This document shows, piece by piece, positions 47,801 to 64,000 of a stretch of DNA of 64,000 bases. This DNA comes from Candidatus Thorarchaeota archaeon. Lineage in GTDB: Archaea > Asgardarchaeota > Thorarchaeia > Thorarchaeales > Thorarchaeaceae. Every line of letters starts with the position of its first letter. Position 1 is the first letter of the stretch. The position numbers and the translations under genes are program-made. The stretch spans positions 64,001 through 128,000 of the forward strand of contig RDNZ01000002.1 in assembly GCA_011364905.1 (NCBI GenBank), written 5' to 3'. The notes under the pieces were generated by a model. That model was not told the origin of the DNA, ran no database searches, and saw only the letters and a list, made by a program, of their open reading frames with translations.

Positions 47801-48699
47801 GTATCCAGCAAGTCGCGGACTGCGTGTACTGCCAGATATGTGCTTGATATGCTCGGAGTATGAGAATAGTGCAGCCCTCCAGCCAGCGTCAGTCCCTGCT
47901 TAGACTGTTTTGCCTGCAAGAGACTTGCAAGAGAGGTTTCTCGCAATGCGGTACAGTATGCAAGTGTGTTCACAAGGAGACCCTTCCCATCCCCTGTCCA
48001 CTGAGCAGGGTCTTCTGGGCCAAATAGGAACACATCGAGAGGCCAAGAATCATAACGCAATGGAGAGAGAGCTGCGGGTGTGGTGGTTCCCGTGAGATCT
48101 ATCAACCGAGACCGTTCAGCCTGCACTTCATCCACGGGCAGATTCAAGCCGCTCTCCATGGTGAGGAGCGAACCAGGGGTGAGGCTTATCGGTTGAGAGA
48201 GGAAGACTGCTTCTTCGTACTCGGGTGTAGTCTGCAGATGAGTACTAAGGCTTGCAGTCGATTCGGGTGGACTGGTCTGTCTTAGTCTATAAATGAGCCA
48301 TGCGGCTCGACCGACCAATATAGTGGGAAGGTCCAGTCGGACCAGAAGAGTGATGAACTCATCGCTCACTGCGGCTCCATCGTTGGACCCGCAACTGGCA
48401 TCTACTATGAGAGCTTGTGCCTCATCGAGAAGAGAGGAGTTAGCCAGGATCTCGCTTACATTGTACTTTGCATGTGGAACATTATTATCACTGAGCAACG
48501 ATGAGAGAGAAGAACCTCGTGGAACAATAGATGCTCCAGTGAGTTCAATGATGATATACAAACCCAGAGAAGTCGGAGTTCCCGCACTTGAAGAAGGCAT
48601 CATTGGTTTATTCAAAGTGACATCGTCATTCGTCACATCTGACACCCCAGAGATTGCCGGACTGCACATGACCCAGATCATGATAATGATAACAAACAA
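41836..48699 (-). CDS. 2287-aa surface protein: prenyltransferase/squalene-oxidase-like repeats plus multiple Ig-like repeats plus C-terminal TM anchor
   Basis: Signal peptide; repeats WLSSQQDSEGGF, WIQDTSNGDGSF, WLTANQLPSGGFG, LRQDTGGQY; then about 100-aa beta units (DxxGxPxxG...TDxxG...GxYxxxxxYxG); terminal TM plus RRR. Confidence 0.8.
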   Translation of the reverse strand: MFVIIIMIWVMCSPAISGVSDVTNDDVTLNKPMMPSSSAGTPTSLGLYIIIELTGASIVPRGSSLSSLLSDNNVPHAKYNVSEILANSSLLDEAQALIVDASCGSNDGAAVSDEFITLLVRLDLPTILVGRAAWLIYRLRQTSPPESTASLSTHLQTTPEYEEAVFLSQPISLTPGSLLTMESGLNLPVDEVQAERSRLIDLTGTTTPAALSPLRYDSWPLDVFLFGPEDPAQWTGDGKGLLVNTLAYCTALRETSLASLLQAKQSKQGLTLAGGLHYSHTPSISSTYLAVHAVRDLLDTGTFSGWQYDNQLLVQSVLQNLYVDSGSEAGFTESIYDGVISEDSTAMGLWLTSVMSLESQFSVTKLSAWLSSQQDSEGGFSNHMTVTYHVTESLYESGGLNQINRVSLESWLRSCVVDGSTGTPDNWGGVAKNPTTGEARNIYSSQYVQSLWMLGKAHTDPLKLTEWIQDTSNGDGSFRDTVSADMYVTRGTSSALTTMSILGTLTASNKTGGLNWLTANQLPSGGFGMGESSQDIVGKTWAATEVATSLKELGETTSPLASGVLAYINGIQSHAGFEAMEEIPSLMWSYWLAEVNRLAHSGKPDYYLLDDYLSRFTGTALTQYPGQSNLTVLGAPEYDNQQYYLTGVWAQYFGSCLAGDNEIVLSPSQVSYITLYLSLRQDTGGQYRPSVMGTQHMQYTVAAVEALYQLDELDTMWYRSALESSVLSLYSSGRWNAAGWDLAPFAGVQSAIDFLCTRAALRLDLVTPVMANEIANAINSRLQYTDLWALSWDIKTLALLNTTFPVGLHAVNRSSVLGALGTHFTEGWFNSSTIWQPVYTAGVLDMVSVLGLRPQMVPVEGCSLTISIPSTAQLGDSLDIAVSINSERTTHSVYVRAFDSWILFEDIANSDMLSIVILSDVNAIGIQDVSVMVWDLGAIRAFDGGSIDVHGSIEGDLILQTPNVVRGDLISGTVSWTLSGGGLVGATDINIRLSNGSWFNDLASTAESPYDFSLPTDDLGAGPYNLIVTMHKSGFDNLVVWQTVSIAQPVDTQISSTSTLVGGVGNESLIPFSLLLKSNGSAIAGQAVILTIWDEGMSIIHTDTMMSVDGLSYFSWTPISRGQYTFNLHFERNGVLVASDSNGTVDVYEKPTVLIQMGQDPIAPGSTTLTVSIEDSNSQAISGASINTLVTLDGITILDSMNTTTGEGLVDFVLSIDSPGNLIVIVSVPAQGWLLGINNQSQTLALGRTTLLLSLPGQPVSQGTTLGINALVLDWTGAPLRGTPVEIDVSWYNGTEISSTIVYTGLDGTCSTSHQFVLIGDFWVRALYTGFGLNASVSDSVIQRVVVTPTMILTHGPTVNVGDSAEFLVGIQDNFGHYIGGKLLSFLIEMDGNTILQTQVSSVNGLVAIYWSPVNRGLAMISLTHVADTYYQGNSTESSMSVMEVVNGILGLNTSQIDLFGSVTLTYTLSSTSVVSGVDIVFQVLGMDLVPIWTEHILTDGSGIASVVYLADDAHGLLIVTAAPAEDQFMLGGDRQIDLTVMTYAHVVTDLSPEPPCVGQQTSVTVSVTDDLGLAIDGLRVRIYVYDIYLNLLFSLNRDTIDGYAHVEFTPTQWGAYRVGVSSTGATSVHGFTETGPDTHTVYCPTTLILSIENANIEVGDTLTVAARLDNVYGNPLVGMSVNLSVDGARNLGSVSQVTNESGYISWNIVIDEQGYWTVRADFFGLATYLPDSDSMVAHSTYGTSVILELQNDADIIAGLVPLNVTVLLVDSGGTPLEGRTIQWEAHHNLQGLVVSGSFIQPGVEPEVVVILLLRGGNYTVIFSFAGSDHYHSSNAALEISVKGTSTIVLDGPASIDRASEDNLTVCVIDELGTTLDTAKLNVEITLTNSSGLVDIVSWFVEDEMNLSLYGLEVGDYTLNITIIESTSRTGSVLIIPLKVTTQSKIESVTAILSGIINQKHSVTFRLADSLNDTMADMTLWVSLYRPDGTEIYGILGDMTPVGLVDGLATISWTPSWTGNYTLVVRYIGDEWRLPTVWELAILTRRPTTFTTDALEPVDYGVPVQIEAALTSSLSTLGGTDVSIIVILKQDVVLERIVVTNSRGIASTTLDGLLAGEYVVRIYYAGTESLAPCAVDLHLKVRPLVSFALDLQTEPYVNSNCTLKLFSTIQGVNTDWTGTLTIALYDPQGSLLLNKTSSIGANVDLMLHTVLEMEGQYTIRVRILGLPITMMAESELQFMSTQVPLKIPLDAGTTPVVAGVPILGLIGFALRRRIRGTIDGLPTEWGG

Positions 48700-49896: not shown

Positions 49897-50892
49897 TTAC
49901 ACAAAGCTTTCCAGTGTTGTCTGTGTGTTACCAAACATTTTCCATATATGCACCAGCTCACGGGTTTTGGCTTCTGCCCTATCCTTCCCCATTGCAGGTT
50001 GGAGAAGTCTGACAAGTCTCGGAGTTATGAGCGGCTTTAAGGTTAGGTCCACGCCCTTTGCACTCATAAATGAGGCTTCGTCAAAAACCTCTCTGGCCTC
50101 GATGTAGTCCTCTCTTTCAGACAGTTTCAGACCTCTTGCTTTCAGCAAATATCTCAGACCGCCATATCGTTTCAATTCAATTGCACCTTTCCGTGGTCCG
50201 AGACCCTTGATGCCTTTCTTATGAAAGTCACATCCGCAAACTATTGCTAGGTCTCGAAGCAGTTCAAGATCAAGGTCCAAAACTCGCTCCAGCTCACTAA
50301 GGGTTGTGTACTCCATGGTCCCCTTGGACAACTGAAGACTCTTGATGACGTGAGGACTGCCGAATAACAGGGCATCAGCGTCATTGGAAACCACAGAACC
50401 TACTAGACCCTCTCGACACAGGACTGCACCAAACATCTCTGCCTCGGATGGCGATGTAATTGCGGGTATCCCTGCTGCACGACAAAGGTCTTTGACGTGA
50501 TTGACTGCGAAGTACATCCTAACAGCAGGACTCTCTCTTAGTGACTCTACAATCTTAATGTCGTGTGTGTCCTGCTTGATGAGAAACCGTTCATATAGCA
50601 TGTGAGCTGTAGTTATGAGTTCAGGATTCGGTTTACGTTTCAGGGATTCAGGCGGTCCATCGAAAAATAGCGCTGGAAGAATATGGCGTTTAAGCGCTTG
50701 ACGAATCAGTCCAAAGGTTATGTGAATATGTGCCATGGGTATCTTGTTCGATGAGATCGGTCGAATGGTGGACAACCTGCGCATCAAATAGTTGGGAGCA
50801 TCGACTGCAATTTTGGGAGTGAACAGCTCTGAAACATTGGCCCACTTCCATGGCACCAGGTTCTGCCAGTTTTTCACTCCCATTCCAATCAA
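49897..50892 (-). CDS. FEN1/XPG-family 5' nuclease with C-terminal PIP box
   Basis: MGV start, AVDA, FFDG, SEAE, SNDADALLFG, GCDF, H3TH GIKGLGP, C-terminal QTTLESFV. Confidence 0.88.
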   Translation of the reverse strand: MIGMGVKNWQNLVPWKWANVSELFTPKIAVDAPNYLMRRLSTIRPISSNKIPMAHIHITFGLIRQALKRHILPALFFDGPPESLKRKPNPELITTAHMLYERFLIKQDTHDIKIVESLRESPAVRMYFAVNHVKDLCRAAGIPAITSPSEAEMFGAVLCREGLVGSVVSNDADALLFGSPHVIKSLQLSKGTMEYTTLSELERVLDLDLELLRDLAIVCGCDFHKKGIKGLGPRKGAIELKRYGGLRYLLKARGLKLSEREDYIEAREVFDEASFMSAKGVDLTLKPLITPRLVRLLQPAMGKDRAEAKTRELVHIWKMFGNTQTTLESFV

Positions 50893-51608
50893 CCCGTTCC
50901 TTTGAGAGTCCTCGCTCCCTTGAGTCCCAGCCGCACCACCACTGGATCTGGTAGTGGATGAACAGGACTTCGTTCCACTTGTACTCTGAGACCATCAGCT
51001 GCCATATTCATGCTTGCTATATGGACTGTTGTGTCCACGCCATGAGCAATCACATTCCCGCCAACTGGCTTCAGAGCGCCAGTGTCCCAGTCCCTGCTTG
51101 AGTGATCAGTCAAGGCAACATGAAGATCATTGTCATTCACTAGTATACGAAGAATCTCCAATGTGTGCTGAAGCGCACGCTGCCTACCCTTAGATCCGAT
51201 TCTACCACTCAGGTTAAGGATGCCTGTGAGACTATCCACTGCGACTACTCGAACGTCCCTCATGCAGCCTATCCCCTGTGCTAGTTCCTGCAGGTCCGAA
51301 AGCTCAAGCACCTGTCCCACTATCACATTTCTCAGCAGCTCAGCTTCCTTTCCAAGCAAGGCACGGGTGAGAGGTGAGCTAAAGTTATTCCCAGAATCGA
51401 TGAATACACTCCGTCCTCCATTGAGAACACCACCAACAACAATTGCATGAGCTACAGTGGTCAGAGGTTTTCTCTCTGAGCTATGTATCAGACTGATTTG
51501 GTTTGGTAGTATCACTTGTCCCAGAGTCTCATCCAATGGTCGTGGTCGTAACCGAACCAGTGATTCCTCATGAACTGGTATGTTATCAAGCGGTAGACTC
51601 TCCGGCAA
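50889..51608 (-). CDS. RadA/RadB-family paralogue with degenerate Walker A
   Basis: LDETLG, SLIHSSERKPLT (dead P-loop), VFIDSGN, VAVDSL, PVGGNVIAH. Confidence 0.75.
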   Translation of the reverse strand: MPESLPLDNIPVHEESLVRLRPRPLDETLGQVILPNQISLIHSSERKPLTTVAHAIVVGGVLNGGRSVFIDSGNNFSSPLTRALLGKEAELLRNVIVGQVLELSDLQELAQGIGCMRDVRVVAVDSLTGILNLSGRIGSKGRQRALQHTLEILRILVNDNDLHVALTDHSSRDWDTGALKPVGGNVIAHGVDTTVHIASMNMAADGLRVQVERSPVHPLPDPVVVRLGLKGARTLKGTG

Positions 51609-52575
51609 CCTCTACACCTCCCATCGATAATTGCGCAATATCACGACCAAGTAGAACGTGAGCCTCTCGACCATGTGGTAGCTGTTCGAGGTCGAATCCC
51701 GGTGCGGTATCACTTTTGATGACTACTCGTAACCCCGTTCTGTTTGGAAACACGGTGATACGATTAGGCCACATCTCAATAAGTTTCTTCACGGTGCTTT
51801 CCTCAACAGCCACCTTATACTCATTCAATGTCATGCCTATATCATCCTCCATTAGTGGAAGACTGAGTATCGCATTGGTCATGAAAAGTGAGAGAACCTG
51901 CAAGCTTTCAGCTCCCTTCTCAGCTAGTGCTTGCTGGACTTGTTTCAAGACCTTCTCTTCTCCTTCAGTTCGTACAATCAAGATGTCGCATTCTTCGTAT
52001 CTTGTGATTGACACCGGAAGGAGTGGTCGTTCACGAAGAAGATCTAGGACTACTGCCCTCATACTATTCGGAAGGATTATTGCCTTCATGTTGAGCTTGT
52101 CAATGGACGTCCAAAATCTGCTATGTGAAACTGAACTCCGTCCTAGTATTGGAATCGAATGTCCAAAGGACGCCATTGGCTCCAGAAGGGCAGAAAATCG
52201 CTCCGTGATGCTACCAGGCTCTTTTATTCTGCTACAACCGATAATAGTTCCACCCATTGCGAGAAAAGCAGCAATCAATCCAAATGGTAATACAACAAAG
52301 AGCATCACGACTCCTGTATAGACGATGCAAGCCCATGAAACCACATTGAGTAAAAGGGACAGTGGTTCCTTGGTTTCCCTGCGGGCGATAAAGAGCATAA
52401 TGATGGTTCCTCCCCAAACAATGACAAGAGGCTGAATATTTCCTAGCCGCCATGCTAGGACCACAGAAGCAACAGAACTCAGTAGCTGCCCACCCAGAAA
52501 AAGAGCAACCGCTCCCGCCAGAGCATATACCATTAAGCGGAAAATTGACTTTCCGAACATTCGCTTCTCCTCCAT
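51586..52575 (-). CDS. hypothetical protein, N-terminal about 4 TM plus soluble domain
   Basis: Hydrophobic first ~115 aa. Overlaps both neighbours. Confidence 0.75.
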   Translation of the reverse strand: MEEKRMFGKSIFRLMVYALAGAVALFLGGQLLSSVASVVLAWRLGNIQPLVIVWGGTIIMLFIARRETKEPLSLLLNVVSWACIVYTGVVMLFVVLPFGLIAAFLAMGGTIIGCSRIKEPGSITERFSALLEPMASFGHSIPILGRSSVSHSRFWTSIDKLNMKAIILPNSMRAVVLDLLRERPLLPVSITRYEECDILIVRTEGEEKVLKQVQQALAEKGAESLQVLSLFMTNAILSLPLMEDDIGMTLNEYKVAVEESTVKKLIEMWPNRITVFPNRTGLRVVIKSDTAPGFDLEQLPHGREAHVLLGRDIAQLSMGGVEVAGESTA

Positions 52576-53189
52576 TCTTGAGTTGGTACTGATAGTCGGA
52601 CAACTCCTTTGATATCGATCATCATTCTTGCCAATGGGTTCCCATCAATCAACAATCTGGAGTCCCTCTCCAGGCTTCTCACTACCCGAATGTCCACTGG
52701 TTTCCAAATCAGAATTGATTCGTGCATCACTGGTGTAACTCGTTCTTCCAGACTGCGAACTTCACTCACAAGGACAACCTTTACTCCTCGCTCCGTTAGA
52801 GCAACCAATGATGGTAGAGCATTCTCGATCAAATCCCGACCCCACATTATCTCTTCGCGTCGAGTCATGTCAAGCACCCGTGTTATGGGGTCTACTACAA
52901 TTAACGATGTGTCATCTGGAAGCATCTCACAGACTGAGAGTATGCCCTCTTGTACCTCTTTATGTCCATTGAAAATGTTCACAGTGATTTTGCTGCTGTT
53001 TTTTGTATTGGATTTCAAAGCTCTCACAAAGGAGCGTTTTCCATCAGCACAGATCCATCTCACAATACCGTCTCTTGCAGCTTCTGCAGCAAGGGAGCAG
53101 GCTAGTAGGGTCTTCCCAGATCCAGCCTCACCCCAGATATGGAAAAGGTCGCCCATCCTCAACAAAACTTTAGCCCCCAGTACTACCAC
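52533..53189 (-). CDS. RadB/Rad51-paralogue-like RecA-fold ATPase
   Basis: HIWGEAGSGKT, WICADG, IVVDPI, VVLVSEV. No N-terminal HhH domain. Confidence 0.8.
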   Translation of the reverse strand: MVVLGAKVLLRMGDLFHIWGEAGSGKTLLACSLAAEAARDGIVRWICADGKRSFVRALKSNTKNSSKITVNIFNGHKEVQEGILSVCEMLPDDTSLIVVDPITRVLDMTRREEIMWGRDLIENALPSLVALTERGVKVVLVSEVRSLEERVTPVMHESILIWKPVDIRVVRSLERDSRLLIDGNPLARMMIDIKGVVRLSVPTQEWRRSECSESQFSA

Positions 53190-54852
53190 GCTCCTTCTTT
53201 CGGGTGGGAAAGTGAGTCCGTGATGATGAGCTTGTCACACTGTGACGCTGGAGTTTGCTTCGTTTAACAACCTGCTCACTGGTCTCATCCTCTGCAGCAA
53301 GGAGAACTTGGACCGACTCCGCTGGTTCTTCATCGACTGTCTTGGCAACGACCATAGGTGGGTCTGCAAACTCCTTTCTCGTCCGATCTGGTTCTTTTAT
53401 GACCCTATCATTTGCTCCAGGGACTTCCTCTGTGTTTCCCATCACCTGCAAAAAACTGTCGAGTTCATCTTCACTCTCTGCACTAGCCGGAGCCATTTCC
53501 TCTCTTACAGGAGGTTCCTCCGGTTCAGCAAGATCCTTGTCAATCTCCATGACAATCTTTTTACTGGCATGAAGGTTGAGGATATCATCAATCCTGTTTT
53601 TCACTTCGGGACTCAGAGCACCAACATCAAAGAGAGCGTTGTTAAGAACTCCAAGGTGTCCGATAATCTCATGTTCCTTCAAAGGTGTGCTGCTATGTCC
53701 GGTAAGGCCAACATACGCTAGACCGAGAGCTTCTTCCTCACCCTCCCCGAATTCTAACCCGATGTTCTTGAATAAGCTCAAGAATTTTTCAAGACCAGGA
53801 TCACCAGAGAGATTAGGCATTTCGACAGTGCTAGTAGGAGTAAGCCTTACGCATTCATCTAATATTGTAAACAGGGAGCCCACTGATTTGTTGAAATCGC
53901 CAGTTTCTATAGATTCGGCAGCACTATCCATCAGCGGGGTCACTATGAAGTTTAGTGTGCCAACGAGTTCAAGTCGGTTAGCATTCTCCATTATTGAAGA
54001 TGTGACCCGGTTAGAATCTCCAACCTCAGACAAAGCAGAAACCTCTTCATTTAGAGCACTACGAAAGCTGCCTATTGCAGTGTTTGCTCCCTGGAGCATC
54101 CATGAACCAAGCAGAAATGATATGCAGAAAACGACAAGCGGGAAGATTAGTGTTCCATTATTCAATAACGCGCCTGCAATGCCGAACCCAGCCATCACCC
54201 CCATGACAATACAGAGTATACCGAGCCAAGACCTCCTCAGACCTGTTTCTAAATCATCCCACTTAGTGGAGCTCACATTCTTCTGAACATCATGCAAGTG
54301 AGATCGAGAGTCACTACTTAGCAGGAGTCCAAGTTCATTATCAGGTAAGATACGGGATGAATCAGTAAGCCACGATAAGTCTCTACGAGAGCTGCCCTCC
54401 TTGTATACAGCGTAGATAGTACGAGTTTCATGAATTAGGGATGATGATTTCGAATCAATGGACCTCATAACAGAGAACTCCACTCGCCCAAATGACGATA
54501 GGAGAGACCTCGCCTCGAACGCGTCCAGTAGTCCTACATCTTTGAGGATGCTCTTCAAGGACCCATTGACACTTTCGAGTATTGCGGCTTGCATAGCCAG
54601 AGTGGAGCGACCAAACCTGGCCTTCTTCAGGTCAAGTACATAAGCAACATCTACATAGACGCCCCTGGTTCCTGGAATGCCAACCAGTCGCACTCCCAAG
54701 ACCAACCCATTGGGATATTCTGCTGTTCTATGACCCGCTCCTTCTAGCACTCGAACAACGTCCGTGGTGGCCCGCTCCAAACTTGTGCCAATGGACGACT
54801 CACTCTCTTCTTCCTCAGTGATTTTTTCATCATCAACTGCTGTCATTAACAT
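53170..54852 (-). CDS. hypothetical protein with central 2-TM hairpin and acidic disordered C-terminus
   Basis: TM pair around residues 210-255, helical domain, acidic tail. Overlaps both neighbours. Confidence 0.75.
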   Translation of the reverse strand: MLMTAVDDEKITEEEESESSIGTSLERATTDVVRVLEGAGHRTAEYPNGLVLGVRLVGIPGTRGVYVDVAYVLDLKKARFGRSTLAMQAAILESVNGSLKSILKDVGLLDAFEARSLLSSFGRVEFSVMRSIDSKSSSLIHETRTIYAVYKEGSSRRDLSWLTDSSRILPDNELGLLLSSDSRSHLHDVQKNVSSTKWDDLETGLRRSWLGILCIVMGVMAGFGIAGALLNNGTLIFPLVVFCISFLLGSWMLQGANTAIGSFRSALNEEVSALSEVGDSNRVTSSIMENANRLELVGTLNFIVTPLMDSAAESIETGDFNKSVGSLFTILDECVRLTPTSTVEMPNLSGDPGLEKFLSLFKNIGLEFGEGEEEALGLAYVGLTGHSSTPLKEHEIIGHLGVLNNALFDVGALSPEVKNRIDDILNLHASKKIVMEIDKDLAEPEEPPVREEMAPASAESEDELDSFLQVMGNTEEVPGANDRVIKEPDRTRKEFADPPMVVAKTVDEEPAESVQVLLAAEDETSEQVVKRSKLQRHSVTSSSSRTHFPTRKKERGSTGG

Positions 54853-57013
54853 TCCTCCCTAATCGCTCTTCTATTCCCCCAAGGAGCCCACTGCTCAGTT
54901 CCACGAGTCTTGAGAGACCCCCTAATCCTGCAAGCACAACAATGCTGGCTAGCAACCATCGTGACCTCTCCAGTAGACTATATGCATCCCCCACTGGAAT
55001 ACCAACGTTCTCTGAAATGTCTCTTATGGACATAGAAGTGGTAGCGGCGGCACCAATCAGGTTTTCAAACGACTCATCAAGCTCGGAAACAGACTCCATC
55101 GACACAAGATGCCTTACGAGAGAGAGAAGCGAAACAGCATCCTCTGTGAATGGCATCATGGCCATTAGCTCTCGTATCGTCCTCATGCGGAGATACAGCC
55201 TATTCACTGTCCTTCCGAGTCTTGTGATCTTGAAAGCGCCTTCCTTGCTTCCCTCAATGAGCCCCAATCGTGATAATGCACCTGTGGGACTAGACTCTTC
55301 CATGGCGATGGGCACGATGTAGTTCGCTAGAGGTCGTATCTTTTCATTGCGTGATGCCTTGAGTCCGAGAGAAACCAGATGCATACAAAGGATACCAGTT
55401 TCATCCAATGGATTACCACATGAACAACTTGCACCTTCTACAGTGCCACTGGTCTGGAGTCGGGTGGAGAACCGACAGGTGAAGCTCCCACCTTGAAAAC
55501 CTGAAACTATTCCTCCGAGGACATCCTCGCTGGTTTCCCTGATGCTGACGGAGCCTAGTGCGTCTTTTCTTGCAGCCTGAACTGTGTCAGGCAGGGCATG
55601 TTTCTCAATAACCGATTCCGCTGAGATCTCTCCGAGATGTAGGGGCCTCATGGGACTTCTAACATCTCTCACCGCGCAGAACACGAGATAAGACTCGCTC
55701 ATTATGTCCTCCATCTGTTTCACTGTGCTCTCATTCATGGTGTCAAGAAGGACAAGAATTTGCTCGGTAAGCGATGCCGCTGAACCGAGCCTACTCCTCA
55801 CTCTTTCATATCGAGGAATCAGGGTTTCACCAACCTCATCAAAGTATCTGCGCTTCACAAGCTCGCACTCACCTCTACTACTAGTGAGGATGACACCAAA
55901 GCCCATAACATCATGTCCAGGTCTCCCCGCACGTCCAAGCATTTGATGGACTGTGTTAGCAGAGAGCATCTCTCTATGATCCTCCGGCGAACGACAACTG
56001 GTGAGCACAACGGTACGAGCTGGGAGATCCATTCCTGCAGCTAGGGTAGATGTTGCACAGATTACACGTAACATGCCTTTTCTGAACAAGCGCTCCACCA
56101 AAGCTCTGACACTCGAGCTGAGTCCAGCATGGTGGAATCCTACGCCATTATGCAAGACTTTCCGTAGGGGCGCCGGAACTGTCATGAAGGATGTTTCTAC
56201 AGAGTTAATTTCATCGTCCAGGGCTTTTCGCTCAATGGAACCAAGTTGCCTAATCACATTTTCAGACAATCGTTCAGCCTCAAGTTCAGCAAACCTTCGG
56301 GTTCTGTGAAAGGTGATGACTTGACCGTTTGCCTGCACTACCGTCATCACTGTTTTTTGGACTGCTCGGGCCTTATCGGGTGTGTGGACTACCTTACAGA
56401 CAAGCGGAACAGGACGCTCATCAGATGCAACAAGTCCGCAACCAAGCCATTCCGCTAGTTCATCTGGGTCCTTAACTGTGGCTGAGAGTGCTACTATCTG
56501 CAGGTCGTCAATGCTTCGTTTCAAACGAAGGATAGTGCTTTCTAGTCTTGCTCCTCGTGTCGAGTCCGAAAGGTTTTGGACCTCATCTATGACCACTGTT
56601 CCGACCTCTGGAAGCCACTCCACCTGGTGTCTCAACAGAGAGTCTGCTCGTTCATAGGTGGTCACAATGATGTCGTATTCTGCCATATCCTCTCCTGAAA
56701 GATGCAGGTCACCGGTAGTCACTCCAATTCTGATGGCATTTTCTTGGTACCGCTCTCTCAGAACTCGTGTTATCTGATATGCCAGAGCTCTTAGGGGTAC
56801 CAAAAACAAGCCTCTTCGACCATTGAAAATCGATCTAAGCAGGCCCATCTCCCCCACCAATGTTTTTCCCGATCCTGTTGGAGCACTCACCAATATACTG
56901 GCCCCATCAAGAAGACCCTTGTCAATTGCCTCAGTCTGAACACCCCTTGGTGTGACACCAACTTGCTCTAGCATCCGAGTGACACTTGCAGGGATATCAG
57001 TGACAGACATCAT
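54833..57013 (-). CDS. Ski2-like (Hel308/HELQ/Mer3-type) DExH helicase with inserted SWIM zinc finger
   Basis: APTGSGKT, VPLRALA, DEVQ, SAT, FHHAGL, TSTLAAGMDLPA, QMLGRAGR, plus CSC-x10-CMH. Confidence 0.88.
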   Translation of the reverse strand: MMSVTDIPASVTRMLEQVGVTPRGVQTEAIDKGLLDGASILVSAPTGSGKTLVGEMGLLRSIFNGRRGLFLVPLRALAYQITRVLRERYQENAIRIGVTTGDLHLSGEDMAEYDIIVTTYERADSLLRHQVEWLPEVGTVVIDEVQNLSDSTRGARLESTILRLKRSIDDLQIVALSATVKDPDELAEWLGCGLVASDERPVPLVCKVVHTPDKARAVQKTVMTVVQANGQVITFHRTRRFAELEAERLSENVIRQLGSIERKALDDEINSVETSFMTVPAPLRKVLHNGVGFHHAGLSSSVRALVERLFRKGMLRVICATSTLAAGMDLPARTVVLTSCRSPEDHREMLSANTVHQMLGRAGRPGHDVMGFGVILTSSRGECELVKRRYFDEVGETLIPRYERVRSRLGSAASLTEQILVLLDTMNESTVKQMEDIMSESYLVFCAVRDVRSPMRPLHLGEISAESVIEKHALPDTVQAARKDALGSVSIRETSEDVLGGIVSGFQGGSFTCRFSTRLQTSGTVEGASCSCGNPLDETGILCMHLVSLGLKASRNEKIRPLANYIVPIAMEESSPTGALSRLGLIEGSKEGAFKITRLGRTVNRLYLRMRTIRELMAMMPFTEDAVSLLSLVRHLVSMESVSELDESFENLIGAAATTSMSIRDISENVGIPVGDAYSLLERSRWLLASIVVLAGLGGLSRLVELSSGLLGGIEERLGRNVNDSS

Positions 57014-59361
57014 ACCTCGGACCCAACCTCCTCTGATTGACGCAGAGCCATGCTACCCTTCATGGTTATCCGATAATTCTTGTAGGAAACTCCTGCATGG
57101 GACTCGCTACCACGAAGAATCAGACTCGCATTCTCCAACCGTGCAAGAATAGCCTCGATGTCAACCTCCGTATGGCCCTTTGCGTTGAGAAAACGTCTGA
57201 CAGACTCCTCAGTGAGAGGCTCGTAGCGGGTAAGGAGCTTAAGAATCTCTTTCACAGATGCTCTGTCTCGTCCTCCAACCACAGCAAGTAGTGTTTTTGG
57301 TTTCCCTGCTTCGGGCCCGTCATCCGTTTTAGTTAGACTAGGCCTCGGAAGCATGTCAACTCCCTCATTGGATAGTGTTCTAAGCCCTGGTTCAGGTGCA
57401 ATCTTGAATGGCATACAAGTCTTTGCCTGTTCGTGCGACATGAGAGCATAGCCTCGCTCCATTACTCTCAGGAACGAACCTTCTCGCGATGATTGACGCG
57501 CCTTGCTATGAATTCCTGTCCCAACAACATCTAATGACAAGAGGTCAGATACATAAGCAATATCAGCGGACTCCCGCAACCTTAGAGCGATACATGAACC
57601 AAAGGCGTCCGCCGCATCCCACATTAAGGCTGATGGGTTGTTTACACTGAGTATAAGAGGTCCTCTCTTGAGGAGCCTCCGAACGATTCTCTCAGCCATT
57701 ACCCCCCGTTTGGTATACCTGAAAGTGCTTTTATTTGTGACAAGATGTTCAGGCATATCAATGACAGTGACCAAATCAGATTCTTTTGCAAGTCCTGACA
57801 ATTTGAGGCTCATAAGATCCAGTGCAAACATATCGAGATCAAGAGCTCCAATCGCGAGGTTCACAACTACAAGCTCATGAGAGGCGATCCTACTAAGAGA
57901 AATCGTCTGAGTACCATAGAATGCTTTTGCTCCTGACCCCTGATAGAGCCTCTTGATGGCATCGAGCGCAAGTGCTGAAGACTTGGATAATCTAACATTC
58001 TGTGGAGGGACTGCACCCTCCTGAAGGGATTCATGCTCAGGATCAATAACTACATCGGCGAGTGTTCCATTCCCGAGAGCAACCACTCTGCTCAATGCAA
58101 CCTCAAAGTCAGCGGCTGGGCTGAGATTAGTCCCAGCAAGAGTTTCCAATAGCAGTAGCAACTCCGAAACATACTGTGTTCTGGGAATTCCCTCAGAGTC
58201 CACAGGATTCAGTACAAAGTCCTTCCCGAGACTAACGGCGAGACCGCTGGAGCTGACACCAGCCAGACTTTGGCAATCATCGTTTATTGTGAGCACTAGA
58301 ACCTTCTTTCCCTTGGCTAAAATCTGGTCAATAAGAACACTGAGAACTTGCTTTCGATCCCGCCAATCTCCTCCGCATAATAAGAGACCACGTTCAAGGT
58401 CAGAATGCATCAACCCCACTGAGGGACCTGTCTTTAGGGTTTCGGGATTCACAACAACGCCCAGAGGGTAGTCATCAGACCTGCTTCTTATTGGCGCAAT
58501 GAACTCCCCCGGAACGTTACTTCCCACCTCAGGACCTAGTTCGCTTGGCAGTTGTACTAGCCACTCTGCCAACTCCTTTCCTGTGGCAAAGAAAGTGGGC
58601 GAACTGCTACAGAGGTCCCACTCTTCAAGTCTTTGGCCAAGGTCTTTCTCCTTCAACCTCCTAAAGCCGCTGTCAGGAACACTCCCTTTCACTTGCCCCT
58701 CAACTAGTCGGACGTCAGATTCCGTATGAGAATGTCCAACAAAATACAGCTGTGAACGCCAGAGCCCCCCCCGTGCATGAAAGTAGGTCTTCCTCTGTGA
58801 TGAGGAAATATGATTGAGATATCTCTCGATTATGGAAGTGACAACACCATCTCTTGCAACCTGTTTTGAGTCAGATGGAAACAGATCTGCAACCATCAAG
58901 AAACCATGTGAACTGTCTAGACCTCGAAGAAGTTTGCTTAGATTTCCTTGTAGGATTGGCCGAGCTTTCTTCATGTTGAGTGCAATGAGATGGCTTTCCT
59001 TTCCAAGACCCCTACAATGTAGCGATTTTTTCTCTTCACTGTAACTCACATCTGGGTCGGGTACCCTATACCAACTAGTATCATCGAGCGACCGAGTTTC
59101 AAGGTAGTTTTGAATCAAGGGCAGAACAAGCATCAGCATTAGGATTATTCCAGTAATGAATATCGTGACATAAGGCAGCTGAATCACTGTAATCATAATA
59201 ACCAATGAGAGTCCAAGAGCATAATCCCATGGAAGCTTGACTGACCTGTCATCCCATCGTATCTCTGTGTCTGTCGTTATGGTCATGCCAGACGCCTCAA
59301 GCTGGTCCATAGGATCCTGCGCAGGCTCTGAGCCCATGATGTTCCCTCGTTTCTTAGTCAA
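57010..59361 (-). CDS. membrane-anchored HerA/VirB4/FtsK-like ATPase-fold protein with degenerate Walker motifs and C-terminal wHTH
   Basis: Two N-terminal TMs, then DLERGLLLCGGDWRDRK, KKVLVL, VLNP, TVIDMPEH, SVNNPSAL, CIALRL...D and MERGYAL in HerA/VirB4 motif order. C-terminal LARLENASLI...YRITMKG. Confidence 0.68.
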   Translation of the reverse strand: MTKKRGNIMGSEPAQDPMDQLEASGMTITTDTEIRWDDRSVKLPWDYALGLSLVIMITVIQLPYVTIFITGIILMLMLVLPLIQNYLETRSLDDTSWYRVPDPDVSYSEEKKSLHCRGLGKESHLIALNMKKARPILQGNLSKLLRGLDSSHGFLMVADLFPSDSKQVARDGVVTSIIERYLNHISSSQRKTYFHARGGLWRSQLYFVGHSHTESDVRLVEGQVKGSVPDSGFRRLKEKDLGQRLEEWDLCSSSPTFFATGKELAEWLVQLPSELGPEVGSNVPGEFIAPIRSRSDDYPLGVVVNPETLKTGPSVGLMHSDLERGLLLCGGDWRDRKQVLSVLIDQILAKGKKVLVLTINDDCQSLAGVSSSGLAVSLGKDFVLNPVDSEGIPRTQYVSELLLLLETLAGTNLSPAADFEVALSRVVALGNGTLADVVIDPEHESLQEGAVPPQNVRLSKSSALALDAIKRLYQGSGAKAFYGTQTISLSRIASHELVVVNLAIGALDLDMFALDLMSLKLSGLAKESDLVTVIDMPEHLVTNKSTFRYTKRGVMAERIVRRLLKRGPLILSVNNPSALMWDAADAFGSCIALRLRESADIAYVSDLLSLDVVGTGIHSKARQSSREGSFLRVMERGYALMSHEQAKTCMPFKIAPEPGLRTLSNEGVDMLPRPSLTKTDDGPEAGKPKTLLAVVGGRDRASVKEILKLLTRYEPLTEESVRRFLNAKGHTEVDIEAILARLENASLILRGSESHAGVSYKNYRITMKGSMALRQSEEVGSEV

Positions 59362-59631
59362 CTAGGTCCTTCCCCCTTGTCTTGCCAAGACTTTCAACAT
59401 CATCTTAATGCGAATCAGCATTTTCTGATCTGAAGAGTTCACCACTAGTGAATCGTTCATAATGACCAGCTCAGGATGCTCATGCTTCGAAGGATGCCCG
59501 AGTACCATTAGAACTGGCTCCTTGGATACAGTTGTCCAAGTGTATCCATGGCCCCGTTTCAGGAAGTCCATCACCGCGTCAGCCTCCACACCTGATGGAA
59601 TGTTTAGTGATACATCCTCACCCACTGACAA
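59362..59631 (-). CDS. small hypothetical protein
   Basis: 89 aa, coupled to both neighbours, RBS GGAGG. Confidence 0.7.
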   Translation of the reverse strand: MSVGEDVSLNIPSGVEADAVMDFLKRGHGYTWTTVSKEPVLMVLGHPSKHEHPELVIMNDSLVVNSSDQKMLIRIKMMLKVLARQGGRT

Positions 59632-60211
59632 CGCCTCCTGTGTTCACCAGTTGCATCTCGTAGAGTCCTGCACGCTCCACAGGTGTATGAGGATAGGATG
59701 AACGCATGGCACTCTCTAACGTTGTCACATCATCAAACACCTTCTCAGCCAACATCCTGATTATGCGTGCCCCATTCCAAAATCGGAGAGACCGTCTGAC
59801 AACCTGCATACCAACCAGCGTTGAGTTGTCATCCAAAGGGCGACACACGAAGAACCGAACCTCACATTGACTCTCTTTCTTGAACTGCTCACTCATAGCT
59901 CTCAGTACCTGTTTGGCTGCGTGCGAAACATCAATCCCCAAGGGTACGCTAGCCAGTAAGCAACCTGCTTGAACCTCTACAGTCCAATTGCGACGAATGG
60001 CCATGGTGCCGGTTGCCTCATCCCAGAATACAACGACGGGTCGTTTCCATAAAACGAAGAGAGCGATTACTAGAGACGCTAAACCAATCCCAACCAAGGT
60101 CTCGAAAGCAAATCTTCCTTTGGGGTCCATGATGATTCTAGTTGACCATGCCGCCAGAACAGCAGCTGGAACAGTCCATTTCACCCACTCATAATCCTGG
60201 TAATTCCTCAT
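59618..60211 (-). CDS. hypothetical protein, 2 N-terminal TM plus soluble alpha/beta domain
   Basis: RBS GAGGAGGGTG, 3 nt after the XPD stop codon. Confidence 0.75.
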   Translation of the reverse strand: MRNYQDYEWVKWTVPAAVLAAWSTRIIMDPKGRFAFETLVGIGLASLVIALFVLWKRPVVVFWDEATGTMAIRRNWTVEVQAGCLLASVPLGIDVSHAAKQVLRAMSEQFKKESQCEVRFFVCRPLDDNSTLVGMQVVRRSLRFWNGARIIRMLAEKVFDDVTTLESAMRSSYPHTPVERAGLYEMQLVNTGGVVSG

Positions 60212-60214
60212 TCA

Positions 60215-62152
60215 TCACACCCTCCTCACAAACATCCCGATGGCGTCTCGCAGCTCATCCTCTCCTCTGTATGGCCAGAGATCTGCGGCTGTGTCCTCTC
60301 CGAATACGTCAATGTGTTTCAAGAACCGCTTGTCTAATAGCACAACTATGCCTTGATCCTCCGGTGACCTCCTGAGTCTTCCTGCCATTTGTGCAACTTT
60401 TCGTATTGATGGTACAACCACAGCATAATAGTACCCTGAGCCAGCTCCGTATCTTCGATCATAGAAGTCCTGCAACGCTTTTTGATGACTTGTCGGAGGA
60501 CTGAATGGTATCCCCACACCAATAATGAGGTCCACCATGCTAGACCCCGCCTCCACCAAGTCTACTCCTTCGCTCACCTTTCCACCATAAACACAGAACA
60601 AGGCATGGGGCTGCGAGGCGAGAGCTTCCTTCACATCATCAATTCTACTGCGTCTATCCTCAATAAGACGCTCTCGAAATCCTGCGTTTACTCCAAAACT
60701 CAAGACATCTCGCATGATTGCATAGCTCGGGAAAGCAATCATGGCGCTCTTGTTGGCGGGAACTGCCTCGAGTACGGTTTCGATCCTCTCACTCAAAGTA
60801 CGCCAAAGGTCAGGTCCTCTGGACTTGTAGCTTGTTGATACTTCTCTGTCCACTAGAATGAGCCTTGTTCCTCGTGGATAGGGACTGGAAAGTTCCTCAC
60901 CTTTTGCACTACCAATTCCAAGTATTCGTTTGTAGTGAGAGAGTGGTCTCAGAGTTCCAGACATAAGGAGCGAGGAGCGTGCCATCCTGAGTATCGGAGC
61001 AATTAGTCCAGCAGCATTCAGTGGACGAATCTTCAGGATAACGCGCATGATGTCTTGGTGCTCCTCCCAGCCGGTTGACTTCTCAATGGTGACCAACCAG
61101 TCATCACTCTCGGTAGCTTTTCTTCCAGCATAGAGGAAAGACACTAGTCGATCCACTGGTGTGTCAACAGGGACAGTCTCATCCGCACCTTCAAGCAGAG
61201 TACTATACTCGATGAGCTGTTCCAAATCGCCTTGTGCAGCAAAACGCGGATAAGCGTCCCACTTGTCAAGACATCGTTCGTCCTTCAATGTGTCGAGATT
61301 CACCGAAACGGTCTCCCAAAGAAAATCGACTGTTTCCTCCAACCAACGCACACCAGTTTCTTTGACGATGTCGCGCTTGTGCTCTCTGAGCCATAGCAAG
61401 TCAGCCCCACGCAGCTCCGCAGCCTCAGCCTCTAGAACATGAGATGAGAGGTTATGAGCCTCATCCACAAGGATGTCAATCTCGTACAAGCCAATTCCTA
61501 GCGATGAAAGAAGGGCCATTTGGACACGGCTTCTAAACAGGTAGTCATAGGGACCAACAATGACTCTACTTTTCTTAGCGCACCATCTAAGCACCTCGTA
61601 GGGACACATACCATTGTCACGGCCAACATCCTCAGCTACCGACTGACTCACGACATTGTCTTTGAGGAGCTCATCTATAGTTTCTAGGAATGCCTGACGA
61701 GGTTGATGTCGTCCATCAGCATTTCTTCTGTAGCAATTCCAATAATAGGTGCAGTTGCCCGTTTTGACAAGGGCTGCGCACTCACGCATGAAACCCAACG
61801 AAGAAATATGCCTCATCTGACCCTTCATGGGACACACGTGTTTCCTAGAAACCATGCTGGTAGCTGTAAGCAGTGTATCCTGGGTGTAGATGCGTAATTG
61901 TGTGAGTTCTTCCTCGAACACCTTTGATTGCGAGTGAGTTCGGGTAAGCACGAGTAATCGTGACTCAGGATCATTCACACGTGCAGCCAAGTAACCGGAC
62001 AGAGCCGCAATGGTCTTTCCGATTCCGCAGTCGGCAGAGAGTAGACCCACCGTTCCCTCAGAGAATACTTCCTCTGCATATCGTAATGCGCGTTCTTGGT
62101 GCGGTCGTGGCTCATAGGGGAACCAGTCCATTGGGTCAGGTAGAGTTGCCAT
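60215..62152 (-). CDS. XPD/Rad3/DinG-family Fe-S DNA helicase
   Basis: Q motif RPHQ, ADCGIGKT, four Cys (HVCP, ECAA, NCTY, MCPYE), DEAH, SGTL, EGVD, QMAGRLRR. Confidence 0.92.
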   Translation of the reverse strand: MATLPDPMDWFPYEPRPHQERALRYAEEVFSEGTVGLLSADCGIGKTIAALSGYLAARVNDPESRLLVLTRTHSQSKVFEEELTQLRIYTQDTLLTATSMVSRKHVCPMKGQMRHISSLGFMRECAALVKTGNCTYYWNCYRRNADGRHQPRQAFLETIDELLKDNVVSQSVAEDVGRDNGMCPYEVLRWCAKKSRVIVGPYDYLFRSRVQMALLSSLGIGLYEIDILVDEAHNLSSHVLEAEAAELRGADLLWLREHKRDIVKETGVRWLEETVDFLWETVSVNLDTLKDERCLDKWDAYPRFAAQGDLEQLIEYSTLLEGADETVPVDTPVDRLVSFLYAGRKATESDDWLVTIEKSTGWEEHQDIMRVILKIRPLNAAGLIAPILRMARSSLLMSGTLRPLSHYKRILGIGSAKGEELSSPYPRGTRLILVDREVSTSYKSRGPDLWRTLSERIETVLEAVPANKSAMIAFPSYAIMRDVLSFGVNAGFRERLIEDRRSRIDDVKEALASQPHALFCVYGGKVSEGVDLVEAGSSMVDLIIGVGIPFSPPTSHQKALQDFYDRRYGAGSGYYYAVVVPSIRKVAQMAGRLRRSPEDQGIVVLLDKRFLKHIDVFGEDTAADLWPYRGEDELRDAIGMFVRRV

Positions 62153-62154
62153 CC

Positions 62155-62742
62155 TTATTCCCCCAGGTACAGACAGTTCTCGGCATTATGTATTCTGAAC
62201 TTTAGAGAAAAGTAGGAGCGAAGCAACAGATGGAATGTCTTTGCCGCTGCTGGCGAGTTGAAACCGTTCTTTTTGCCCACCATGCTTTCCAGTATCTGAG
62301 GGCTGAAACCTCTTCTGCGAGCTTGTCTCCAGAAGGTTCTCTCCACCTCCTCTACTGTGGCTTTATAGAAGTCAAGTGTCTGCTTCACTACTCGTTGGAG
62401 ATACTGCACAGCCTCCTTGGCCCTATGAGGGATCTCTGATACCTTCGTTTCAGTGGGGAGATAGACCGCCATACCTTCCCTGCTTTCAAGGTACACCTCC
62501 GAAGGTACACCTCTGGTACCACGTAGAACCTCAAGATGAGACAGAAGTCGCGGCAGCTGCGAGAGGGTAGGTCTTGCTCTATCTCGCCAATCCACCGTCG
62601 TGACCACATATAATTCTGGGTCAGGTTCGTGGTAAGCAACTGGAACGGTGGTCAGTCTGTGGGATGTATCACGCATTAAGAGGTTGGTCATGTTTATGAC
62701 AGATGCATGGGATTGATACGCAGGAGGCAGAACCACTGCCAT
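62155..62742 (-). CDS. hypothetical protein
   Basis: 195-aa soluble ORF coupled by a TGATG overlap. Confidence 0.75.
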   Translation of the reverse strand: MAVVLPPAYQSHASVINMTNLLMRDTSHRLTTVPVAYHEPDPELYVVTTVDWRDRARPTLSQLPRLLSHLEVLRGTRGVPSEVYLESREGMAVYLPTETKVSEIPHRAKEAVQYLQRVVKQTLDFYKATVEEVERTFWRQARRRGFSPQILESMVGKKNGFNSPAAAKTFHLLLRSYFSLKFRIHNAENCLYLGE

Positions 62743-63182
62743 CAGTATTCGTCCCCCACTGCTTTCAGAATCCCATCCATGTTCACAATTAAGTCCTCGT
62801 CCTCCAGCTGGTCTAAGAACCTAACAGCCTTGTCGATTTCGATGCCTGCTTCCTCGCACTCTTGAAGGACCCTATCACGACTCACTCCTGTTCCACGATT
62901 CAAGTCACTGAGGTCAGACACTATATTCAGCACGCGCTTCTTGACACCAAGACCATGTCTCGACTTGGACCTATGCGTAGTTGGTTTCCTCCAGACAATC
63001 CTCTGTATCTCTAGAAGAGCTCCCTCAACTGAATCGACATACTTCCAATCAGGACTAGGCTCGATTCTTCTGGAACAGAGATTGCACTTTGATTCCTCAT
63101 CCTCACTGTACACAGTAGCGTATCCGGTATAGCCGCAATGAGGACACATGAAGATTCTGTACATCTGTTCCTTTGAGGTCAC
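62742..63182 (-). CDS. Zn-ribbon plus winged-helix protein
   Basis: CPHC...CNLC, and a C-terminal GVSRDRVLQECEEAGIEIDKAVRFLDQLEDEDLI wHTH. Confidence 0.78.
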   Translation of the reverse strand: MTSKEQMYRIFMCPHCGYTGYATVYSEDEESKCNLCSRRIEPSPDWKYVDSVEGALLEIQRIVWRKPTTHRSKSRHGLGVKKRVLNIVSDLSDLNRGTGVSRDRVLQECEEAGIEIDKAVRFLDQLEDEDLIVNMDGILKAVGDEY

Positions 63183-64000
63183 TCCTCTTGCTCCTCCTCC
63201 TCAGTCTTCTTTCCCTTCTTCTGTTTCTTCTCGTCCTCGTCATCATCCGGCGAACCTAGAGACCCAAGTTTCTCAGAGATCATCTTTTCGGCGTTTTTCT
63301 TCTCTGTTGCATCGTTGTATAGACCGCCCCAGCCAATATGTACCTCAACATCAAACTCCGGAACTCCCGAGTTGTCCTTGAGTGAAATCTTCCGCTTCTT
63401 CTGCGCTCCGACCCTTGTGAAGAACCGATAGTCAGATGCGTGACTCAGAACATGACCACCAACAGGTGCAGATGGGTTTCCAGACCCATAGGTAGAGATT
63501 TGAGTCGTCACCTGATTTGTATACACAAAGATGGCATCGGTTGCAAGACCAAGACGACGCATCCAGTTCATCAGGGAGTTGATACTATACTGACGAGATG
63601 CCAAAGTACCGATGCCAGTGTACTCCTGCCGAAACAGACCGGTAAAGGAGTCTATCACCAGCATGCTGTACTCGCCTTCAGCCAGCATGAGTTGAATCTG
63701 CTCGGCATACTCCTCCATCTGACTGCTGAGCGCAATAGTTGCCACACTAATGTTACCAAGCACAACCTCTGGATCCAAGCCCCACCGTATCGCATTTGCA
63801 CGGATATGCTTGGTTTTGAAAGATGACTCCGTGTCCAACCACAAGATCCTTCCTTCTAAGCCGCCTTGTTCAAGGGGCAACTGGCACCTCACTGCAAGAT
63901 GGTGACAGAGGAAAGTCTTCCCTCCTCGCGCATTACCGTATATCTCAACTATTGATCCTGCTTCCAAACCGCCGAAAAGCTTGCTATCCAAGCTTTCAAT
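63179..64000 (-). CDS. radA: RadA/Rad51-like recombinase (5'-truncated by window edge)
   Basis: GNARGGKT, CQLPLEQGGLEG, WLDTESSF, VIDS...FRQEYTG...LASRQ, TNQV, PVGGHVLSH. Divergent from canonical RadA, so probably a paralogue. Confidence 0.85.
   Translation of the reverse strand: MESLDSKLFGGLEAGSIVEIYGNARGGKTFLCHHLAVRCQLPLEQGGLEGRILWLDTESSFKTKHIRANAIRWGLDPEVVLGNISVATIALSSQMEEYAEQIQLMLAEGEYSMLVIDSFTGLFRQEYTGIGTLASRQYSINSLMNWMRRLGLATDAIFVYTNQVTTQISTYGSGNPSAPVGGHVLSHASDYRFFTRVGAQKKRKISLKDNSGVPEFDVEVHIGWGGLYNDATEKKNAEKMISEKLGSLGSPDDDEDEKKQKKGKKTEEEEQEE

Follow-up and report, generated by a model that had tools for sequence, protein, structure and literature searches.

Eukaryotic HELQ works with RAD51 paralogues and binds BCDX2. 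Its helicase domain, that of POLQ, and archaeal Hel308/Hjm (2p6r, 2va8, and 2zj2/2zj8) possess the same RecA1–RecA2 motor with all superfamily 2 (SF2) motifs, followed by the same winged helix and seven-helix ratchet domain. A review of September 2026 presented Hel308 and HELQ as five-domain enzymes and mentioned neither SWIM nor zinc (PMC13623763). In a phylogenomic survey of 2024 on the Ski2-like helicases of archaea, with 75 Asgard genomes included, Asgard Hel308 was noted to branch together with HELQ/POLQ of eukaryotes, and SWIM was not mentioned (PMC10946056). In the literature searched, no relevant paper combining SWIM, Hel308, and archaea was found. In this study, a helicase gene was analyzed in a stretch of 64,000 nucleotides (the window) from contig RDNZ01000002.1 of Candidatus Thorarchaeota archaeon (assembly GCA_011364905.1, positions 64,001 to 128,000 of the forward strand). 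The gene encodes a paralogue of Hel308 with a domain inserted into its winged helix; the insert is very likely a SWIM-type zinc module and might serve as a docking site for a protein encoded in the same operon. The coordinates of all features are listed in Table 1.

A Hel308-type motor with an interrupted winged helix

The SF2 motifs of the window helicase were intact, including PTGSGKT (Walker A), DEVQ, and QMLGRAGRPG (motif VI). The Pfam families DEAD and Helicase_C were matched at 104 and 39 bits, respectively. The closest solved relatives by sequence were archaeal Hel308/Hjm, namely 2zj2 (E 7e-69), 2p6r, and 2va8, which were aligned over residues ~25–445 only. Similarly, the NCBIfam Hel308 models matched residues 6–445 at 250–344 bits, far under their equivalog cut-offs; the score for NF040935 was 300 bits over residues 7–443 only, compared with an equivalog cut-off of 1200 bits. 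The full-length AlphaFold2 model, obtained from 25 orthologues, had a predicted local distance difference test (pLDDT) value of 86.2 and a predicted template modelling (pTM) score of 0.83. Its top structure matches in the PDB were Hjm/Hel308 with template modelling (TM) scores of 0.69–0.71; behind them came the POLQ helicase domain and Brr2. The result was in agreement with the original prediction, made from the DNA letters and their open reading frames, which had described an intact SF2 core of Hel308 type and had proposed a structural comparison with archaeal Hel308.

In the model, a beta-hairpin was present in RecA2 at residues 391–400, and the motor was followed by winged-helix domain 3 and ratchet domain 4, with the winged helix interrupted by the insert. 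Judging from its motifs and fold, a protein with two RecA domains, a winged helix, and a ratchet would be an ATP-driven 3′-to-5′ translocase or helicase on single-stranded DNA like Hel308.

To locate the insert, the window helicase was aligned by BLASTP with the canonical Hel308 from a genome of the same genus. The alignment fell into two collinear pieces (residues 6–445 and 546–695), which indicates that residues ~446–575, about 125 amino acids, have no counterpart in canonical Hel308. Within the winged helix, the insert separates the helical part from the beta-wing (LGLIEG...ITRLGRTVNRLY), which resumes beyond it, as the original prediction had described. The AlphaFold2 model of this region contained two short helices, four strands (487–530), and two helices starting at residue 544.

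Compared with Hel308/Hjm, the window helicase carries the insert and lacks the helix-hairpin-helix (HhH) domain 5. The model stopped after the seventh ratchet helix, and no HHH match of Pfam was found in the window helicase, which confirmed the short C-terminus noted earlier. Weak Helicase_dom4_arc matches covered residues 662–700 of the window helicase, and domain-4 Pfam matches were found in 22 of 25 orthologues, all of them under the cut-off. The canonical Hel308 of the same-genus genome possessed HTH_61, a full domain 4, and HHH_5. The C-terminal HhH domain, described as a "brake/annealing" domain, has been lost in this lineage. Three SWIM-bearing orthologues of other Asgard families (779–794 amino acids) retained HHH_5, and therefore the SWIM insertion preceded the loss of domain 5 and did not simply take its place.

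Identity of the inserted domain

SWIM domains (PF04434), such as that of ZSWIM8, share the pattern CxC-x(7–19)-CxH; in their fold, a beta-sheet precedes a helix, and the CxH lies where this helix begins. The same pattern was found in the insert. The motif CSC-x10-CMH, which the original prediction had located at 55379–55426, corresponds exactly to C530-S-C532-x10-C543-M-H545. In the domain model, the beta-sheet strands (487–530) were followed by a helix from residue 544 that bears the CxH, as expected for the SWIM fold. Among the 25 Thorarchaeota orthologues, C530, C532, and C543 were invariant, and H545 was His in 24 and Gln in one. Furthermore, the four predicted ligands were the sole invariant columns among 18 Asgard sequences of 17–61% identity, in which inactive ("dead") paralogues were included. 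Such conservation of the Cys and His residues in homologues was one of the points by which the original prediction was to be judged. The spacer between the ligand pairs varied from 7 to 19 residues across the family, which is covered by the usual SWIM range (PMC5727457).

The gathering cut-off of the Pfam SWIM model is 19.6 bits. An orthologue from another Asgard family (locus L027) scored 27.7 bits, above the cut-off, at the aligned columns. In addition, a paralogue of 733 amino acids in the window's own genome scored 20.9 bits in a six-frame search and 16.7 bits with hmmscan, and its CxC...CxH aligned with the motif of the window helicase. In the SWIM search by hidden Markov model that had been proposed earlier, the L027 orthologue thus passed the cut-off, the paralogue scored on either side of it, and the window helicase itself escaped detection.

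The insert was also folded alone from the 18-sequence alignment, and the model had a pLDDT of 89.7. Compared with 48,161 representative solved chains, it gave one outstanding match, residues 71–289 of ZSWIM8, with a Z score of 7.0, a root-mean-square deviation of 5.5, and 19% identity over 103 aligned residues; the next match had a Z score of 3.8. A search of the ESM Atlas with the insert returned no usable match, and phmmer with the insert alone against the whole sequence library returned Thorarchaeota relatives and two repetitive proteins only; no further named taxa were gained from a word-based profile search.

Some of these results count against the assignment. The window helicase had no match to Pfam SWIM, and among the 25 Thorarchaeota orthologues sub-threshold matches were obtained in 5 only. 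The Z score of 7.0 for ZSWIM8 lies in a range where common structural arrangements also score, and Foldseek with the insert model gave nothing under E 0.08. The fold match is accordingly taken as support and not as proof. Even so, the fold match and the invariant ligands together make it very likely that the insert is a SWIM-type module, predicted to bind zinc, and the real SWIM-type module in the winged helix that the original prediction had claimed is supported by the ligands, the ZSWIM8 match, and the score of the L027 orthologue.

Compared with SWIM domains elsewhere, the domain of the window helicase is an internal insert in an accessory domain of a helicase, and the protein falls under Pfam detection. 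In the 2002 description, SWIM was reportedly a terminal module in bacterial SNF2 ATPases, MuDR transposases, and MEKK1.

Paralogues, distribution, and gene neighbourhood

The window helicase is a paralogue that stands beside canonical Hel308. Five relatives, one of them with a closed genome, each possessed a canonical Hel308 that matched NF040935 almost end to end at 585–639 bits, and each also possessed the SWIM type, which scored 262–314 bits over the motor only. A canonical copy was not found in the window's own assembly, which is 81% complete, and the missing copy is probably due to this incompleteness.

A match to the insert profile was obtained for 258 of 400 Asgard genomes; for the high-quality ones, the count was 67 of 90. 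The profile was almost universal in the window's family (83/85) and in two others (123/135 and 6/6), and it was not found or was rare in several other Asgard families. The survey of this architecture across archaea that the original prediction had called for was carried out on Asgard genomes, and within them the spread is wide.

The 733-amino-acid paralogue on another contig of the same genome was collinear with the window helicase and carried its SWIM domain at the same site. Its Walker A was destroyed (YDYDEAH), DRLD stood in place of DEVQ, and motif VI was altered. This dead paralogue was conserved in other genera of the window's family, with 53% identity in L037, and lay in a conserved neighbourhood of housekeeping genes. 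In a tree of motor columns, canonical Hel308, the dead paralogues, and ASH-Ski2 formed clades, the dead paralogue was placed on a very long branch, and the backbone was unresolved. In the approximately unbiased test, a single clade of all SWIM-bearing helicases was not rejected (p 0.49), which is no proof of a single origin.

An ASH-Ski2-type helicase of 873 amino acids was also present in the window's own genome (contig C47, L003:820-3441, plus strand). It has an N-terminal Cys-rich extension, and its C-terminal DUF5814 carries CGC-x6-C-x-H, another motif resembling CxC...CxH.

On both sides, the SWIM helicase gene shows translational coupling. The sequence ATGA (57010–57013) contains its start as well as the stop of the gene upstream, and its last 20 nucleotides overlap the next gene downstream. 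It belongs to a string of co-directional, overlapping genes on the minus strand (49897–64000), in which recombination enzymes are mixed with four membrane proteins. Two small proteins of unassigned family lie between the RadA and XPD-type genes, and a two-helix membrane protein followed by an 89-amino-acid protein lies between the XPD-type gene and the gene of the 783-amino-acid protein. Two products downstream of the helicase belong to the RecA/RadA family, so the RadA paralogues had been placed correctly at 2 and 4 genes downstream.

The 783-amino-acid protein upstream had no match in Pfam, PDB, PADLOC, or PHROG. The language-model neighbours of its C-terminal 530 amino acids were clusters of DUF87/HerA, TrwB, and CedB (DNA import), and the HerA-like assignment is a possible lead. 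Its Walker A, read from the sequence, looks degenerate (GGDWRDRK). Relatives of 533–1345 amino acids were found near the SWIM helicase across Asgard families.

The gene order was well conserved. From the gene of the 783-amino-acid protein to FEN1, it was identical in 21 of 21 loci of the window's family, where the contigs reach, at protein identities of 23–60%. In distant Asgard lineages, with helicase identities of 30–36%, a RadB-like gene was found within ~1.5 kb in four loci (L024, L026, L028, and L031), and the 783-amino-acid family was nearby in three or four loci. Moreover, at least 14 genomes of two further Asgard families encode this protein family on the contig of the helicase, at a distance of 7–10 kb. 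That the helicase works with the operon proteins is suggested mainly by this recurring linkage.

The absence of HhH was compared with the neighbourhood. All six orthologues beyond the window's family that have RadB-like or HerA-like neighbours were without HhH, a small and non-independent sample. The relation is a lead only. One genome (G007) possessed two copies, of which one keeps HhH and the other, of the operon type, lacks it. This suggests that the two are subtypes.

In a mangrove metatranscriptome, two contigs of ~265 nucleotides with at least 99% identity were found at 52902–53168 (RadB-like gene) and 54072–54336 (gene of the 560-amino-acid protein), for which DNA carry-over is possible; none was found on the helicase gene, and these contigs were the sole hint of expression. 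Just downstream of the operon, a predicted surface protein of 2287 amino acids (41836–48699, minus strand) has long repeats and a C-terminal membrane anchor.

A role in defence was considered and rejected. The HamB and PADLOC matches of the helicase cover the generic motor only. Among the neighbours, the matches were limited to weak P-loop matches in PADLOC (the RadB-like protein) and one weak PHROG match of a small upstream protein to an entry of unknown function. The near-universal presence of the helicase gene in its family is a further reason for the rejection.

Table 1. Positions of the helicase, its domains, and the genes discussed (window positions unless a locus is named).
Feature	Position	Strand	Remarks
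SWIM-Hel308-like helicase gene	54833..57013	−	726-amino-acid open reading frame
RecA1 domain	56414..57013	−	~residues 1–200; Walker A PTGSGKT, DEVQ; Pfam DEAD 25–183
RecA2 domain	55799..56413	−	~residues 201–405; motif VI QMLGRAGRPG; Pfam Helicase_C 290–366
Winged helix, first part	55661..55798	−	~residues 406–451; last stretch alignable to Hel308
Inserted domain, very likely SWIM	55289..55660	−	~residues 452–575; AlphaFold2 model, ZSWIM8 match, Asgard alignment
Predicted zinc ligands C530-x-C532-x10-C543-x-H545	55379..55426	−	alignments, Pfam SWIM columns of relatives
Winged helix, second part	55184..55288	−	helix and beta-wing, ~residues 576–610
Ratchet domain 4	54836..55183	−	seven helices, ~residues 611–726; protein end
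RadA recombinase gene	63179..64000	−	Pfam Rad51, 190 bits; runs past the window end
XPD/Rad3-type helicase, 645 amino acids	60215..62152	−	further upstream, same gene string
Upstream 783-amino-acid protein	57010..59361	−	N-terminal membrane helices; C-terminal part possibly HerA/DUF87/TrwB/CedB-like
Downstream 560-amino-acid protein	53170..54852	−	two predicted membrane helices; no assigned family
RadB-like RecA-family paralogue, 218 amino acids	52533..53189	−	Walker A and Walker B conserved
Membrane protein, 329 amino acids	51586..52575	−	no assigned family
RadA/Rad51-family paralogue without Walker A, 239 amino acids	50889..51608	−	closest solved relative RAD51D
FEN1/XPG-family flap endonuclease, 331 amino acids	49897..50892	−	Pfam
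Dead SWIM-bearing paralogue	L004:1423-3624, own genome, contig C40	+	733 amino acids, collinear with the window helicase
HhH-keeping SWIM orthologues	L027:7487-9826, L029:8741-11098, L030:3070-5454		HHH_5 at 31–46 bits

Possible roles of the SWIM domain

SWIM domains are known from several protein complexes. The SWIM domain of Shu2 contributes to its contact surface with Shu1, a Rad51 paralogue (PMC5727457), SWS1 binds the RAD51 paralogue SWSAP1 (PMC6316741), and the solved structure of ZSWIM8 is part of a CUL3 complex, according to the title of the PDB entry. As in the Shu complex (PMC5727457, PMC6316741), the SWIM domain of the window helicase is found alongside divergent RecA/Rad51-family paralogues, one of which is without a working P-loop here. 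An insertion into the winged helix also has a counterpart, since the arch domain of Mtr4 and Ski2 is inserted there and serves in accessory protein and RNA docking (PMC10946056). Those enzymes are eukaryotic RNA helicases. Their arch/KOW fold (PF13234) bears no relation to SWIM, and no Pfam match to PF13234 was found in the window helicase. The net charge of the insert was near neutral (median 0, window −2), unlike a generic DNA-binding surface.

Protein docking is favoured because of the known SWIM complexes, the near-neutral insert, and the plausible partners in the operon. Tentatively, the window helicase is regarded as an Asgard-specific Hel308 paralogue whose SWIM domain would be a docking platform for an operon partner, with the RadB-like protein and the dead RadA paralogue as the best candidate pair. 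The domain of about 125 amino acids, spliced into the winged helix and predicted to bind zinc, would then tie the motor to a partner from a tightly coupled operon, which appears to comprise RadA, an XPD-type helicase, a membrane-anchored, putatively HerA-like protein, two further membrane proteins, the RadB-like ATPase, the P-loop-less RadA paralogue, and FEN1. The helicase might thereby act on recombination intermediates marked by the RadB-like and RadA-paralogue proteins.

Besides the search results given above, several observations weigh against this docking role. The conserved gene neighbourhood is the only positive evidence that ties the SWIM domain to the RadA paralogues. Shu2 was not among the 50 structural matches listed for the insert model. 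Shu2 and SWS1 are small stand-alone proteins with the extended motif CxC...CxHxxA, in which the alanine is invariant (PMC6316741), whereas the SWIM domain here is part of a helicase and the alanine is not conserved. The position is Ser548 in the window helicase, and the 25 Thorarchaeota orthologues have Ala in 13 and Ser in 11, with one having Gln for the His; across the wider family it is A, K, T, G, H, Y, or S. The three orthologues that keep HhH had no RadB-like or HerA-like neighbour in the available flank, one contig being short, and thus the SWIM domain may predate the operon association. A complex prediction of the insert (452–575) with the RadB-like protein and the dead RadA paralogue, run without controls, had a score of 0.00, which speaks neither for nor against binding. 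Finally, a role on DNA would be equally natural: the first prediction for SWIM was binding to DNA or to proteins (as cited in PMC5727457), and the winged helix of Hel308 is the DNA-recognition domain.

The original prediction had gone further and had suggested that one polypeptide may join a HELQ-like motor with a Shu-like SWIM module. The motor and the SWIM module were supported by the analysis; a likeness to Shu2/SWS1, whose signature alanine is not kept, and docking on the RadA paralogues are conjectural. A more far-reaching reading is unlikely, namely a single Asgard complex of the SWIM-Hel308 paralogue with the RadB-like ATPase and the P-loop-less RadA paralogue, with SWIM docking the recombinase paralogues onto the motor as a prokaryotic single-operon forerunner of the HELQ-BCDX2 and SWS1/Shu2-RAD51-paralogue arrangements.

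A nucleic-acid contact on the winged helix is nearly as likely as protein docking, doubtful as it is when taken by itself. The insert would then tune substrate choice and perhaps take over the "brake" by which the lost domain 5 senses single-stranded DNA. The insertion site in the substrate-recognition domain (domain roles, PMC13623763), the missing domain 5 in this lineage, and the early prediction in the literature that SWIM binds DNA or proteins (as cited in PMC5727457) are consistent with such a contact. Several non-Thorarchaeota inserts and the dead paralogues were basic, with net charges of +2 to +7, which also fits, but the inserts of Thorarchaeota were neutral to acidic (−1 to −4). Moreover, SWIM and HhH occur together in three orthologues, which shows that SWIM did not originate as a substitute for domain 5, and the solved SWIM proteins cited here work in protein complexes (Shu2-Shu1, PMC5727457; ZSWIM8-CUL3, entry title).

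The remaining two explanations are less probable than a nucleic-acid contact. Distinctly unlikely is a membrane-anchored machine for DNA transfer or uptake of the Ced type, of which the helicase would be a part, with SWIM linking it to the HerA-like protein or another membrane protein instead of the RadA paralogues. The genes of four membrane proteins indeed lie among those of the DNA enzymes and are translationally coupled to them, the 783-amino-acid protein has its language-model neighbours in the DUF87/HerA, TrwB, and CedB clusters, and its family co-occurs with and adjoins the SWIM helicase across Asgard families. However, the HerA-like assignment is a lead with neither a profile nor a PDB match and with a degenerate-looking Walker A, genes for a pilus, a pore, or other transfer functions were not identified, and the operon is near-universal in the window's family, as a housekeeping operon would be. 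Quite improbable, and slightly more so, is a pairing of the active helicase with the dead SWIM-bearing paralogue through SWIM. Brr2 consists of an active and an inactive helicase cassette, and such a pairing would give a two-cassette enzyme of this kind. The collinear paralogue with ruined ATPase motifs and SWIM at the same site, the two insert-profile matches in most high-quality genomes of the window's family, and the place of Brr2 among the best sequence and structure matches would all agree with it. The dead paralogue is, however, encoded elsewhere beside housekeeping genes in a conserved neighbourhood, it was sampled in the window's family only, and several distant lineages had a single insert match only.

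Hel308/HELQ has been described as a fixed five-domain enzyme, and a SWIM-bearing form was not found described in the literature searched. The SWIM helicase is a naturally occurring Hel308-type motor that lacks the brake of domain 5. Together with the dead paralogue, it offers an active/dead pair made by nature, which recalls the two cassettes of Brr2. Moreover, an Asgard-wide SWIM helicase in an operon with RadA paralogues provides an expressible system for studying how helicases became coupled to recombinase paralogues.

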